IMG/VR virus record: IMGVR_UViG_3300033074_000711
Location: 64,001-128,000 of that record
Source of the DNA: a virus
Lineage: Duplodnaviria > Caudoviricetes
DNA length: 64,000 nucleotides
Reading direction: 5' to 3' (one strand)
The notes beneath the pieces were generated by a model that did not search any database, was not told where the DNA came from, and saw nothing but the letters and a program-made list of their open reading frames with translations. Positions 14,447-19,970 of this stretch are shown here, piece by piece. Each line of letters opens with the position of its first letter. The first letter of the stretch is position 1. The position numbers and the translations under genes are program-made.

Positions 14447-15268
14447 TTATAAATCCTTAATTTTATTTAATTTATTTTTAAACTCTATTATTTCATTATT
14501 ACTTAAATTTTGTAAATCAGTTGAATTTATTAGATTTATGTCTATTATATTTTTAATAATATTTAATTCATCCTTACTGAATTTTAAGCTATTTAATTCA
14601 TAATCTTCAAAAGCTTCCCATGTTAATGGAAATAAATCTTTAATTATTTCTACAATTGCATTAGCATACTGACGTATTTCAAATTGAGCATGATAGTCTA
14701 ATCTTAATTTAAGAAAATGTAGTAAATTATGTAAATCAATTTTCCAATATGCTTCGGTATAATTAGATAATAGTAAATCTTTACGTGCTTGCTCTCTTGC
14801 TAAACCTAATTCTAATCTTTGTTTATATATATTTTTTGTTAGTATGTGTAGTTGACGTTCTTTTTCTGTTAAAATTTCACCAATATTTTTTTCTAAAAAA
14901 CCATCACTTCCTTGTTTGTTATCTTTAGATTGTAATCTCCATTCGTCGCTATTTGTATATTCATTTTCATCTATTGCTATAGAATATCTAGTTGAATATT
15001 CATTTACTGACGCAGTTCTATGTCTAATCCATTGCCTCCAAACATCTATTGGCACTTTTATATGAAATTTAATCTCACACATTTCTAACGGGCTTGTATG
15101 TTTATGTCTAACTAAATATCTAATTAATGCTCTATCTTGACTAACTGTTTTAGTTCCTTTACCATATGAAACTCTTGCGGCTTCAACTATAGCACCATCA
15201 CTTCCCATATAATCAACTAATCTTACAAAACCGTGCTTTAAAACATTTATTTTTTTATAATTATCCAT
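14447..15268 (-). CDS. thyX: FAD-dependent thymidylate synthase
   Basis: AARVSY, HTSPLE, RHRTASVNEYSTRY (RHRx7SxR), HAQFEIR. Confidence 0.97.
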   Translation of the reverse strand: MDNYKKINVLKHGFVRLVDYMGSDGAIVEAARVSYGKGTKTVSQDRALIRYLVRHKHTSPLEMCEIKFHIKVPIDVWRQWIRHRTASVNEYSTRYSIAIDENEYTNSDEWRLQSKDNKQGSDGFLEKNIGEILTEKERQLHILTKNIYKQRLELGLAREQARKDLLLSNYTEAYWKIDLHNLLHFLKLRLDYHAQFEIRQYANAIVEIIKDLFPLTWEAFEDYELNSLKFSKDELNIIKNIIDINLINSTDLQNLSNNEIIEFKNKLNKIKDL

Positions 15269-15298
15269 TAATATCTCACTAAAATTATCAATTTACAC

Positions 15299-16291
15299 TT
15301 ATAACTCACATTGGCCACCAGCACATGCTAACTCACCTTGTAAATCTGTTTCATCATCATCTTCTATAATTTTAGTTATATCAACTTCTTTTAAATGTGA
15401 CATCAAATCGTTATATTTTTCTTCTGTAATAGATTCAAACGGTGCTTGAATATATGTACCACCATCATAAGGAAGAACCGAAATACCATTATAACCATTT
15501 CTATTTTCCCATAACCATTTTCCAACAGATTCCCACTCATCATCTTTTATTGATATTGTAACACTAACATTATTATAATTAGAACCTTTGTTATGACCTT
15601 TCATAACCCATTCGGTGTTAAATTTTTTAACACGGTCTAATAATTTAAAAACACTTTCGGTTCTTATTTTAGCTGTTTCGGGTGCTTTTAATGGTATTGA
15701 GATAACTGATTGTAAATGTGGTTTAAAATAATCGTCTTCTAATAACTCTTTGTGTTTTTTATTTAAATATTTATATATAGCTTCATTTTTACCAACTCTA
15801 ATTCTTCTAATATAATATTTATCGTGATATGCGTGTATACCACTTGAAGTACCAAGAACTAAAGCTGATGTGCCACTTGGTTTAACTGTTGTTGTTCTCG
15901 CTGATGTGTTTATATTTAATATCTTAGAAACTCTTTTATTTTCTTTCACTACAATTTTACTGGCTTCTTCTAAATTCAAATTATCTAATGCACCACTTGC
16001 GATACCAGTTATACCAACACCAATTAACGCATCTTTTTCTGTTGATTCTTTCCATACACTTCTTAAATAATGAAAATCTGTATAGCCAGCTTGTAATGTT
16101 GCTATAAACGATGCCACTCTGGCTCTGTTATTAAAATCTTCTTGATTTTCTATGTTGCTAGCATTTATTTCAACTAGATTACAAAATGAAAATGGTTTTA
16201 AGGAAATTTCTGAACAATCTACATTCAAAATACTGTTATCCAAGTGTGTTGAATTTTGTTTTGTGTGCTTTTTAATACTATTTATTTTCAT
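15299..16291 (-). CDS. nrdJ: Class II (B12-dependent, monomeric RTPR-like) ribonucleotide reductase, C-terminal fragment with a 25-aa N-terminal intein-C piece
   Basis: CSEISL..FCNLVE, TTVKPSGT, QAPFE, C-terminal CAGGQCEL. Confidence 0.92.
   Translation of the reverse strand: MKINSIKKHTKQNSTHLDNSILNVDCSEISLKPFSFCNLVEINASNIENQEDFNNRARVASFIATLQAGYTDFHYLRSVWKESTEKDALIGVGITGIASGALDNLNLEEASKIVVKENKRVSKILNINTSARTTTVKPSGTSALVLGTSSGIHAYHDKYYIRRIRVGKNEAIYKYLNKKHKELLEDDYFKPHLQSVISIPLKAPETAKIRTESVFKLLDRVKKFNTEWVMKGHNKGSNYNNVSVTISIKDDEWESVGKWLWENRNGYNGISVLPYDGGTYIQAPFESITEEKYNDLMSHLKEVDITKIIEDDDETDLQGELACAGGQCEL
16217..16291 (-). other. Split intein C-fragment (25 aa, MKINSIKK...SILNVD followed by Cys+1)
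   Basis: Precedes CSEISL, which continues the NrdJ motif TNP-C-SEISL. Confidence 0.65.
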
Positions 16292-17597
16292 AATTTTCCA
16301 TTAATATTTTTATTAAATTATCAACAGTATTATAATATTTTACTATTGATTTTATTCCTATTTTTGCATTTATTTTATTTATTTCACGCTTTCTTATCAA
16401 TAATATCTCATTTAAATTTTGTTTTTTTAACATACTAATAACATAATTTAAAGACGTATCTAATATCCATTTATCTAAAAATATAATTATTGATGTTTTT
16501 CCCATTTTAATATGTGTTGTTTTTTTCTTTTCTTTTCTAATACACACTTTACATAATTTTTCCGATTCTTTTTTTATTTTATTTATAATATTATCACAAT
16601 TTTTACATTTAATATTATAATCATATTTTAATAAACTTTTTTTAAAATTTGTTTTAGCTAGTGATTCTGCTCTCTTAATTTTACTTTCTTTTGATAAATT
16701 TTGTTCTCTTATTTTAGCTCGTTGTGAAGCCTTATCATATAAAGTTGGGTCATCTATATATCTTTGTTTTTGTGAATTTGATAATTTTTTTCTATATTCT
16801 GGATTTTTTCCTAATTCTTTTAACTTTTTACTAATTTTTTTACGTGTTTGTTCAGTAACTATTGCTCCATATCTTGGATTTAATTTACCAACATTAGTTC
16901 TATTAGTATTTGGTGAATTTTTCCAATTTTGTAATTTATTTTTTAATTCTATACTAACTTCTTCATCAAAGTTTGTTACAATTTCATATAAAATGTTATT
17001 TTTATTAAAATATTCTATAACTAGTTTATATTTATCGGTTATTATAAAGCTTTTATCTTTTACTTCTAATAATTTAACTAATATGTTATCTTTATAAATA
17101 AAAAAGTCAGGTTTATAGTTAAATTTATTATCTATATTAAACATATATTCTTCATATCGTATGTTGTTTATGCCATATTTATTTGACAATATATGATAAT
17201 ATAAAAATTCATTAGATGAGCGACAATAACATGAAACACCATCGATTTCAAACGAACCACTACAGCCACGACTGTTAAATTTTTTTAAATGTTTTTTAGC
17301 AACATCACTTCTATTTGTATTTTTATAACTAACAGACATAAATTCATTTGAATATTTTTTATAATTAACGTTAGCTTGTTCAAAATTCATATTCTTTCTT
17401 AAAATCCAATATGATAAACTACACTTTGAATTAGAACTATTAATAAATTTAACTATCTCAATAGCATCATTTTTATTTATATTAAAAATATTTATTTGTA
17501 AATAATTTATTGTATTAATTAAAAATTTAGAAAATCCTTTTCTTATTTTTTTATTTGCTAAAAATTCTATCTTATTTTGCAAAACATCATCATTCAT
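16278..17597 (-). mobile_element. Free-standing homing endonuclease (PD-(D/E)XK type with NUMOD3-like DNA-binding repeats) inside fractured nrdJ
   Basis: RSSNE, YE..., YKPDFF...LLEVK; GKLNPRYG...EQTRKKIS; lies between the two nrdJ halves. Confidence 0.8.
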
Positions 17598-17636
17598 AAC
17601 AATATCTCATTTTAATATATTAATAAATATATAAAA

Positions 17637-19112
17637 TTATAAAATATCATCACATATTTCTAAATCTTTAGCAAATTTTTTACCAAATTGTGTGTTGATG
17701 ATTTCATATGGATAAAAATATATTGATTCATTTATTTCAATTTTTTCTTCACCAAATGTTTCGTCACAACAATAATTAGCAAAAAAATTAAAGTTCGGTG
17801 TTGCAGTTAAATCATAAACTGGTTCATTATAATTTAATTTTTCGACTTTAATAATATTTACTATCCTATTATACCCTAATACATTAACAATTTCACCATT
17901 ATTTAAATTGTTGATTGTATTTTGTACAGAGATTTCTGAAAAATCTTCTTTATAAAACTTATGGGTAATATTAGTTAATTGAAAACAACCATTATTAAAA
18001 TAAATTTTATATATATTATCATCTTTATTTGTTATTCCACACCAATTTAATTCAGATTCAAATAACTCACCATATTTATCTTGTGTAATAATCTTAATAT
18101 TTTTATCACTATTATATATTTTTGATAGTTTTTGTATTTCTACAAATCCTTTATTAGTTAATACTTTTGTTGAACCAACAACGCAAGGATTTGTACCAAC
18201 TTCCTTATCATTAGAAAATAAAAATCCAGGTTCACCTGATTTAGATAATTCTATTTTTTTCCAAAGTTTGTTAAAATCTTCTTCTTTAATTCTATGTCTT
18301 AGTAAAACAACACTGTTATTAGCTCTTGCTCTCTGTGGATTTAACTCCCACCAATTACCGAATTTACACGATAACATATCTTCATCATCAAAACTAAATA
18401 ATGAAATTAATGCGGCTCTCCTTATTCCACCAGCTAATACAGCATCTGCTATATAACAAATTATATCATGTGCTTGTATTGATTTTAATTTTTCACCTTC
18501 ACCGACACTATCTAATATTTTTTGAATATTATGTAAACAATCTTTTAATGGTTGGGGGCCTGGTGCTTTACCACCACTTGTGATTAATTTAGCACCTTTT
18601 GGTCTAATATCACTAAAATCAAAATTTGGTAAATGACTTCCGTTAAAATATGCATTCATTAAAACTTTAACAGCATCAGCCCATCCTTCTATACTATCAC
18701 CTATCAAATATCTTTTTAATTTACCCGGTTTTTTTATAGATGGTAATTTTTTAATATGGTGTTTTTGAACGCTAACACCAACACCAGAACCACCTAATAA
18801 TAAAAACATTATTTCTTGAAATGATTCTACTGCATCTACTGGTAAAAAAGAACAATTGTAAATTCTATTTGGTGAAATTTCTATTGATTTACCAGCAAAT
18901 TGTAAACTTCGCATTGATGGTAAAACTTTTTTATCATAAACATATTTATATGCTTCTTCTATTTCATCTTTTAAATTTTGATGTTTTTTTAAATGCATTT
19001 CTTTATTTCTTGTAACTAATTCATACCAATTTTCTCTTCTTTTTTTATGTGGTATGTATTTAGCATATTTCATATGTACTATAATATCTGATAAAATTTT
19101 ATTAGCTATCAT
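17637..19112 (-). CDS. nrdJ: Class II ribonucleotide reductase, N-terminal fragment fused to intein-N
   Basis: KYAKY..RRENW, LPSMRSLQFAG, YNCSF, GGIRRAALI, GEPG...GTNP then intein. Confidence 0.92.
   Translation of the reverse strand: MIANKILSDIIVHMKYAKYIPHKKRRENWYELVTRNKEMHLKKHQNLKDEIEEAYKYVYDKKVLPSMRSLQFAGKSIEISPNRIYNCSFLPVDAVESFQEIMFLLLGGSGVGVSVQKHHIKKLPSIKKPGKLKRYLIGDSIEGWADAVKVLMNAYFNGSHLPNFDFSDIRPKGAKLITSGGKAPGPQPLKDCLHNIQKILDSVGEGEKLKSIQAHDIICYIADAVLAGGIRRAALISLFSFDDEDMLSCKFGNWWELNPQRARANNSVVLLRHRIKEEDFNKLWKKIELSKSGEPGFLFSNDKEVGTNPCVVGSTKVLTNKGFVEIQKLSKIYNSDKNIKIITQDKYGELFESELNWCGITNKDDNIYKIYFNNGCFQLTNITHKFYKEDFSEISVQNTINNLNNGEIVNVLGYNRIVNIIKVEKLNYNEPVYDLTATPNFNFFANYCCDETFGEEKIEINESIYFYPYEIINTQFGKKFAKDLEICDDIL
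17640..18185 (-). other. Split intein N-fragment (182 aa)
   Basis: Block A CVVGSTKVLTNKG, block B-like LTNITHKF, block F EPVYDLTATPNFNFFAN, then a 44-aa tail. Confidence 0.85.
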
Positions 19113-19124
19113 AAATTTCCTTTT

Positions 19125-19313
19125 TTAAAAAAATTTTAAAATTTCATTCTTTGAAAATCCTGCTTTTAATAACATTTTAACAATATCATCTTTTTTATAA
19201 TTATTTTTTAATAAAATTTTAACAGCTTCTTTGTGATTCATACCGCCTAAAGCTTCAGCTCCGAATTCACTTAATTTTAATGTTTCTAATGCTACTTTAA
19301 CTTGATTATTCAT
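19125..19313 (-). CDS. Hypothetical protein
   Basis: Short ORF in the operon. Confidence 0.55.
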   Translation of the reverse strand: MNNQVKVALETLKLSEFGAEALGGMNHKEAVKILLKNNYKKDDIVKMLLKAGFSKNEILKFF

Positions 19314-19328
19314 TTTATTACTCTTTTT

Positions 19329-19970
19329 TTATTTTTTATCCATATAAAAACTTCTTAATAATAATAACACAGCCCAGCAATCATAACTTGCATCATGTAA
19401 TTTACTTTCATCAAACTTAATATCAGCACGTCTAAGACATTCTTTTAAATCTGGAATACATTCATCATTAACAATATCTGTATATAATATAGCTGGATCT
19501 AAAATCCTATGTCTATAGCATAAATTATAATCATTATAAAATAAATTAAAATTATTTTGTATGATAGGAATATCAAAATTTGATATATTTTTTCCAGCTA
19601 AATTTAATAATACTTTTGGAAAAATATATTTTATTTTTTCTTCACCGTCAACTGTAAATTTATATTTTTCTATTTTTTCAAATGGAATTTCTAAACATTT
19701 ATAAACAAATTCTATAACATATTTGATAACATCTTTAGGTTTTACTAAAATATCTGGATTATTTTCTATAAACGTTAATAATTTACTATTAAATTTTAAT
19801 GTTTGTGGTGAACCTATCAGTGGTATATTTTCTATATATAGATTTAATTTTGGTAAATCTTCTAATGGTAATTGCTTATCAGTATCTTCAAATATCATTG
19901 TAAATTGTAAAACTTGTGCATCTTTTACTGATGTATCTGTAGTTTCGGTATCAATTATAAAATATTTCAT
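19329..19970 (-). CDS. DEDDh 3'-5' exonuclease (DnaQ-like)
   Basis: IDTETT, NISNFD, HDASYD. Confidence 0.88.
   Translation of the reverse strand: MKYFIIDTETTDTSVKDAQVLQFTMIFEDTDKQLPLEDLPKLNLYIENIPLIGSPQTLKFNSKLLTFIENNPDILVKPKDVIKYVIEFVYKCLEIPFEKIEKYKFTVDGEEKIKYIFPKVLLNLAGKNISNFDIPIIQNNFNLFYNDYNLCYRHRILDPAILYTDIVNDECIPDLKECLRRADIKFDESKLHDASYDCWAVLLLLRSFYMDKK

Follow-up and report, generated by a model that had tools for sequence, protein, structure and literature searches.

Organization of the interrupted nrdJ locus

We analyzed a 64,000-nucleotide stretch of viral DNA (hereafter the window), which comprises bases 64001-128000 of the 155,930-bp IMG/VR virus record IMGVR_UViG_3300033074_000711 (G+C content about 22%; completeness about 67% by CheckV estimate). 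In the window, the gene for a class II (B12-dependent) ribonucleotide reductase, NrdJ, lies in two halves, each fused to one fragment of a split intein, and a free-standing homing-endonuclease-like gene stands between them (Table 1). All genes around the split intein are on the minus strand. The first open reading frame (ORF) encodes the N-terminal half of NrdJ followed by the N-terminal intein fragment (IntN), and the third encodes the C-terminal intein fragment (IntC) followed by the C-terminal half. The N-extein matched Pfam RNR-II_ins_dom (E 6.6e-09) and RNR_Alpha and was 70-73% identical to uninterrupted phage NrdJ, while the C-extein matched Pfam Ribonuc_red_lgC and phrog_367 (E 2e-58). 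No other reductase large subunit is encoded in the 155.9-kb record.

The anatomy of the intein agreed with a prediction made earlier from the letters of the window (the original prediction), which had described a 182-aa IntN with blocks A, B and F, a block B reading NITH, and a 25-aa IntC ending in SILNVD before a Cys. The penultimate residue of IntC is Val and the terminal residue is Asp. The 439-aa endonuclease ORF gave weak Pfam matches to NUMOD3 and Tn7_TnsA-like_N, and its nearest Atlas clusters bear the same two domains. PHROGs offered no family for IntN or the 439-aa endonuclease, and a PDB sequence search with the endonuclease profile returned nothing meaningful. The IntC ATG overlaps the last 14 nt of the endonuclease gene.

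Table 1. Features of the interrupted nrdJ locus (window coordinates)
Feature	Position	Strand	Size	Remarks
ORF 1: nrdJ-N + IntN	19112-17637	-	491 aa	residues 1-309 extein, 310-491 IntN
N-extein, NrdJ N-terminal half	18186..19112	-	309 aa	ends VGTNP
IntN	17640..18185	-	182 aa	Cys1 at 18185; stop codon 17639-17637
IntN block A	18185-18147	-
IntN block B	17981-17952	-		QLTNITHKFY (Asn-x-x-His)
IntN block F	17825-17775	-
IntN acidic tail after block F	17774-17640	-	45 aa
Free-standing homing-endonuclease-like gene	16278..17597	-	439 aa	NUMOD3 motif; probable TnsA-like PD-(D/E)xK nuclease core
ORF 3: IntC + nrdJ-C	16291-15299	-	330 aa
IntC	16217..16291	-	25 aa	predicted docking segment (about residues 1-17), then block G strand SILNVD
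C-extein, NrdJ C-terminal half	15299..16216	-	305 aa + stop	starts at Cys+1 (16216-16214)

The first residue of the C-extein, Cys+1, is the thiyl-radical cysteine of the reductase TNP-C-x-E motif. In uninterrupted homologues the junction region has the sequence ...NPC[C/A/V/H]EI..., and the joined exteins of the window (...GTNP + CSEISL...) match this motif, which indicates exact rejoining at the thiyl-radical cysteine. We consider it likely that the locus is a fractured gene, in which the only NrdJ gene of the record is interrupted at TNP/C (the slash marks the junction) by a class 1-type intein that is itself split by an endonuclease gene, and that the two halves are joined by trans-splicing, as predicted here.

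Position of the break within the intein

The original prediction had placed the split between blocks F and G. In the Pfam Intein_splicing alignment, IntN residues 109-137 corresponded to model positions 121-149 of 155; the match (E 0.0012) is below the gathering score and weak by itself. By this alignment, block F belongs to IntN and just the final six positions of the model are missing from it, and in the structural models described below the IntC strand occupies the place of block G, so that a split between blocks F and G was upheld. Since block F lies within IntN, the break does not correspond to the canonical endonuclease-domain split site between blocks B and F.

Whereas block G follows block F directly in canonical inteins, 28-70 residues separate the two in the lineage to which this intein belongs. 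All split members keep the long F-G insert and are broken near its end, and the contiguous members P0131 and L085 read through the break point uninterrupted. In the model of L085, the break maps after the strand at residues 172-175 and before that at 196-198. The break is thus within a lineage-specific F-G insert and not in a bare F-G hairpin. IntC is composed of a head of 17-23 residues, predicted from the models to dock on IntN, and a catalytic G strand of 6-7 residues. The original view that IntC holds only a block-G-like strand was therefore right about the SILNVD strand but missed the first 17 or so residues, which form the predicted docking segment.

Relatives of the intein

A profile built from two IntN sequences was searched against 1.84 billion representative proteins. 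Matches numbered 95 at E<=0.001, 28 at E<=1e-10 and 13 at E<=1e-30, and the top 24 clusters (50% identity level) matched the whole IntN profile. All of the approximately 24 clusters that reach an extein junction sit at TNP/C; two are IntN-only fragments. About 16 of the 24 stop exactly after the tail and are split forms (IntN 172-191 aa). The other eight, together with the locus L085, are contiguous mini-inteins (cluster lengths 159-202 aa), in which the tail, or a shorter version of it, runs into ...[S/V][I/L][L/N][N/S]-Val-Asp/Cys. The weaker profile matches were ordinary inteins ending in His-Asn, some of them at the same reductase site.

Loci were then taken from IMG/VR, JGI and Logan assemblies. 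Seven independent split loci contained both halves (the window, L081/82, L084, L089, L086-88, L092/93 and L094/95), and all share the order N-half with IntN, endonuclease, IntC (25-29 aa) with C-half. The intervening gene is homologous to the 439-aa ORF in six of the seven (L081, L084, L089, L092, L094 and the window); in L086-88 it is a GIY-YIG endonuclease, inserted at the same break. Because assemblies made independently (JGI, Logan and IMG/VR) show the Asp/Cys junction and the break of the window again, a sequencing or assembly error has next to no chance of explaining either the Asp or the split, even though the window itself comes from a single metagenomic record.

Of the split forms among the best 120 homologues of the C-half, most had a canonical IntC of 35-40 aa ending in His-Asn. 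One of the 120, P0100, has a 29-aa leader ending in Phe-Asp/Cys. Its contigs, L081 and L082, showed the same three-gene layout, with an IntN of 180 aa that is 50% identical to that of the window, tail included. The conservation of the tail in these IntN sequences indicates that it is a translated protein segment and not read-through; it is likewise conserved as protein in other split and contiguous members. Three further reductase C-halves among these homologues (P0019, P0065 and P0113) start a few residues from the CEI motif with no recognisable IntC; here an intron, or an endonuclease gene on its own, may have split the gene.

These data also bear on repair at the RNA level, by a group I or II intron that carries the endonuclease ORF inside the intein coding sequence. 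Phage reductase genes often carry introns, and L089 contains a true group I intron, two codons past the intein junction. In the window, however, an Rfam search of positions 15000-19500 returned no group I or II intron even at E<=10. The conservation of the post-block-F tail as protein also opposes an intron, as does the start of IntC, whose own ATG overlaps the endonuclease stop in six loci (by about 14-41 nt in the split loci other than the window). We regard an intron as extremely unlikely.

The intron of L089 (7187-7414; Rfam RF00028, 99.7 bits, E 1e-26) and the intein adjoin each other (...VD/CG, intron, EIGM...), and the same reductase gene contains, besides the split intein, an endonuclease gene and an extra 260-aa ORF. 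In L086 (3511-8942; also L087 and L088), the phage reads TGA as Trp, and translation with code 4 restores GW-IKIKNL. The reductase gene of this family is fractured at least three times: the F/G-split intein with its GIY-YIG endonuclease is followed further downstream by a canonical split intein and another endonuclease.

A block F motif scan of 185,579 prokaryote species, with one genome per species, found no lineage member, and the lineage is apparently restricted to phages and metagenomes. When the first 40 residues of the C-precursor were used in a word-based search, the query itself was the only match. A scan of viral contigs with the two-sequence profile found no relatives, and the same scan with a four-sequence profile found eight loci.

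In a tree of the A-to-F region, the lineage fell into a single clade, set off from canonical reductase inteins with 100/98 support. Forms of both kinds, split and contiguous, mingled within this clade; its resolution is too poor to establish a single origin of the split, and the starred branches force at least two changes between forms. This pattern is consistent with both forms being viable.

Structure predictions

AlphaFold2 (AF2) prediction of the contiguous member L085, with 22 alignment rows, gave a mean predicted local distance difference test (pLDDT) of 90.3 and a predicted template modelling score of 0.86. The insert was modelled as four short strands plus helices (a beta meander), and the final strand at residues 196-198 lay in a block with a mean pLDDT of 90. 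In VIA-align, the best match of the model was NrdJ-1 (8ubs; Z 17.8, root-mean-square deviation 1.7 A over 140 residues), and more than 80 intein or Hedgehog chains matched at Z>=8, which identifies a Hint fold. Residues 6..200 of the model (Cys1..Asp) aligned with residues 1..440 of the Mtu RecA intein (Cys1..Asn440), an alignment from the first residue to the last that puts the terminal Asp in the canonical Asn position.

The two fragments of the window were also predicted as a complex. IntN with IntC scored 0.90, and the best of three controls scored 0.18; 58 of 80 solved complexes attained that mark, as did 2 of 110 mismatched pairs, counts that are rough because custom alignments were used. 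The runs shared at least 74% of contacts, with a partner pLDDT of at least 61. The tightest predicted contacts joined IntC residues 20-24 to intein residues 133-137 (the end of block F), 75-78 (the region of the block B His) and 102-104, and IntC residues 1-10 packed on the IntN tail. In keeping with the original suggestion that SILNVD might complete the last Hint strand, IntC docked in the model with this strand in the block G position.

The models also bear on whether the insert and the IntC head together form a miniature nested intein, that is, an intein within the intein. In the window, SILNVD is preceded by Asn and begins with Ser, and SILN is echoed after block F in many members. The position ahead of the strand is occupied by N, K, H or S in different members, and the insert starts without a conserved nucleophile. 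An insert of about 65 aa is too small for a Hint fold, and AF2 gave a four-strand meander and a helix instead. The SILN peptide occurs twice, after block F and in the terminal strand, in L084 (4897-4917 and 6392-6415), L089, L085 and others; the DNA of the two copies is not alike, so they do not stem from a recent duplication. Taken together, these observations make a nested intein very unlikely.

Catalytic residues and the case for splicing

Cys1 and Cys+1 were present in the window and in every family member seen. The block B His (B:10; His75) and the block F Asp (F:4; Asp125) were invariant in the alignments. Four other residues usual in inteins are replaced in the window: Thr B:7 by Asn72, His F:13 by Phe, His G:6 by Val and Asn G:7 by Asp. 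The Asn at B:7, Val at G:6 and Asp at G:7 are family-wide types of replacement, and F:13 is Tyr in most members. The Asp/Cys junction was conserved in 16 of 16 members whose C-terminus was seen, namely 7/7 split loci and 9/9 contiguous relatives. The penultimate residue is Val or Phe, and all nine contiguous relatives end in Val-Asp before Cys. No homologue carried His-Asn at this position, which supports the original identification of the terminal Asp as a genuine feature and not an error or a sign of decay. Judged from their sequences, the lineage is characterized by an Asn-x-x-His block B, the lack of His in blocks F and G, the F-G insert and an invariant Val(Phe)-Asp/Cys.

Beyond the anatomy, its conservation and the predicted docking, splicing itself is what we infer, because this NrdJ is the sole large subunit in the record and the contiguous members would be nonfunctional without excision. 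The competing view is that the intein is catalytically dead, in which case nrdJ would be a pseudogene, or the intein fragments would simply keep the two NrdJ halves associated without a covalent bond. In favor of this view, the usual helper residues and a terminal Asn are absent, the frame is broken in the related family L086-88, and a fragmented phage reductase that works without splicing has been documented (Aeh1 NrdA, the halves of which are held by other means; PMC3045599). Yet about 24 clusters at <=50% identity have retained Cys1, His B:10, Asp F:4, the terminal Asp and Cys+1, and these clusters include contiguous forms, which are unable to work without excision. The loop of the thiyl-radical cysteine could hardly accommodate about 200 extra residues, and Asp-terminated splicing has a precedent. 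A dead intein is therefore unlikely, though more than a formality.

Several points count against an active trans-splicing intein and temper this assessment. With Thr B:7, His F:13, His G:6 and Asn G:7, the customary helpers of steps 1 and 3, all replaced, the splicing chemistry is putative. The sole characterised Asp-terminated intein is a distant and contiguous one. Because many split-intein complexes have been solved, a high complex score may indicate resemblance to those structures and is no proof of binding. In an earlier AF2 run of L085 with a 9-row alignment, the Hint fold was obtained with the C-terminal strand undocked (pLDDT below 50); only two or three rows covered the last strand in that run, which explains the result, and the 22-row run supersedes it. 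In L086-88, a 5-nt insertion breaks the frame right after ...VD/CG, and some copies may be decaying. Charge complementarity between tail and IntC was considered as a general capture rule and rejected: the net charge of the insert is -2 to -9 in 7/7 pairs, but the IntC head is basic in only 5/7.

Proposed mechanism

For an active trans-splicing intein, the following course may be envisaged. The two precursors would be translated separately, with translation of the C-precursor coupled to that of the endonuclease gene. The first 10-17 residues of IntC would bind the acidic insert of IntN, and the SILNVD strand would then enter beside blocks F and B, completing the Hint fold and bringing Asp25 and Cys+1 next to Cys1. 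Splicing would proceed through an N-S acyl shift at Cys1, trans-thioesterification to Cys+1, cyclization of the Asp and an S-N shift. The product would be a continuous ...GTNP-CSEISL... active-site loop.

In a broader form, the proposal has four parts, which as a whole we favor by a modest margin. The lineage would be the first in nature with an intein split at a C-terminal (S11-like) position; a purpose-built docking insert would let an IntC of 25-29 residues capture a near-complete IntN; splicing would depend on an obligatory terminal Asp and use neither of the usual catalytic His residues; and two unrelated types of endonuclease gene would have inserted at one and the same point, and perhaps been lost from it again, with phage populations switching between split and contiguous forms.

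Comparison with known inteins

Fractured genes with split inteins and free-standing homing endonucleases, including NrdJ-1 and NrdJ-2, were described by Dassa et al. 2009 (PMC2677866). In these two, IntN is 88-105 aa, IntC is 33-54 aa and the usual catalytic residues are present (PMC2677866). The gene order, the class II reductase host and the overlap of the endonuclease 3' end with the start of IntC are all as in the window. However, NrdJ-1 and NrdJ-2 are split at the canonical endonuclease-domain site, with blocks F and G in IntC and a His-Asn end, whereas the window has block F in IntN, a 25-aa IntC and a Val-Asp end. The endonucleases differ as well, being Vsr-like or GIY-YIG in the fractured genes of Dassa et al. 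and NUMOD3/TnsA-like in the window.

For the position of the split, a 2026 paper by a leading split-intein group (PMC13014065) names as natural sites only S0 and the N-terminal S1/S2, and treats S10/S11 as sites of artificial splitting. S11 inteins with a 6-aa IntC are engineered (2025 review, PMC11766414), examples being Ssp GyrB S11, Ssp DnaX S11 and Ter DnaE3 S11 (PMC3620165, PMC11766414). As in these, the break in the window falls between the last two Hint strands, and a short C-terminal peptide would complete a near-complete IntN. The engineered forms are artificial, slow and of low affinity, with only six residues in IntC, while the window intein is natural and recurrent in its lineage, with an additional IntC segment of 17-23 residues predicted to dock on a dedicated insert. 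The break position fits S11, but the 17-residue IntC segment of the window is an addition and the insert is absent from the minimal fold. AceL-TerL, GOS-TerL, VidaL and PolB16 OarG are also natural non-canonical splits, known from genes of phages or metagenomes, and have one short fragment each; in these the short piece is IntN (15-37 aa, S1/S2), in contrast to IntC in the window.

For the terminal residue, PMC4031507, citing Amitai 2004, states that Asp- and Gln-terminated inteins, and ones lacking His at G:6, are documented to splice. Chy RIR1 of Carboxydothermus hydrogenoformans (Amitai, Dassa and Pietrokovski 2004, as cited in PMC4031507) is an Asp-terminated intein that splices, and the sole one characterised. 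Chy RIR1 shares with the window intein its location in a reductase and an Asp that immediately precedes the +1 nucleophile, but it is contiguous, includes an endonuclease domain within its 345 aa, and is found in a cellular organism. Changing its Asp to Asn reportedly abolished splicing.

No description of a natural F/G split, or of this lineage, was found in open-access papers or bioRxiv. The original prediction had proposed both a new split topology and a new chemistry. The topology held up, as the position is not among the natural split sites of PMC13014065; the chemistry did not, since Asp-terminal splicing, though rare, has been shown for Chy RIR1 (PMC4031507, citing Amitai 2004). The split position is new as a variant, and the fractured-gene layout and the terminal Asp were already known in principle.

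Natural split inteins with one synthesizable short fragment are sought by protein chemists. The natural examples so far are short at the N-terminus and serve N-terminal labelling, and short C-fragments have come only from slow engineered S11 splits. If splicing is true, a natural 25-residue IntC, with a catalytic part of 6-7 residues, would be of use in C-terminal semisynthesis, its docking module apparently meeting the affinity problem. The lineage would also be a second, widespread case of Asp-dependent splicing without helper histidines, which bears on catalysis of step 3. For phage biology, it would be an example of a homing endonuclease gene that has settled in an intein away from the canonical site while an essential enzyme stays functional.

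Neighboring genes

Directly downstream of nrdJ-C, a gene for a ThyX-type thymidylate synthase (window 14447-15268, minus strand) forms a nucleotide-metabolism cluster with the reductase. Upstream of the window start, one open frame of 492 aa (G000:C1:58087-58347) gave two weak Pfam Intein_splicing matches (E 0.017 and 0.7) and may encode a second intein of the same phage.

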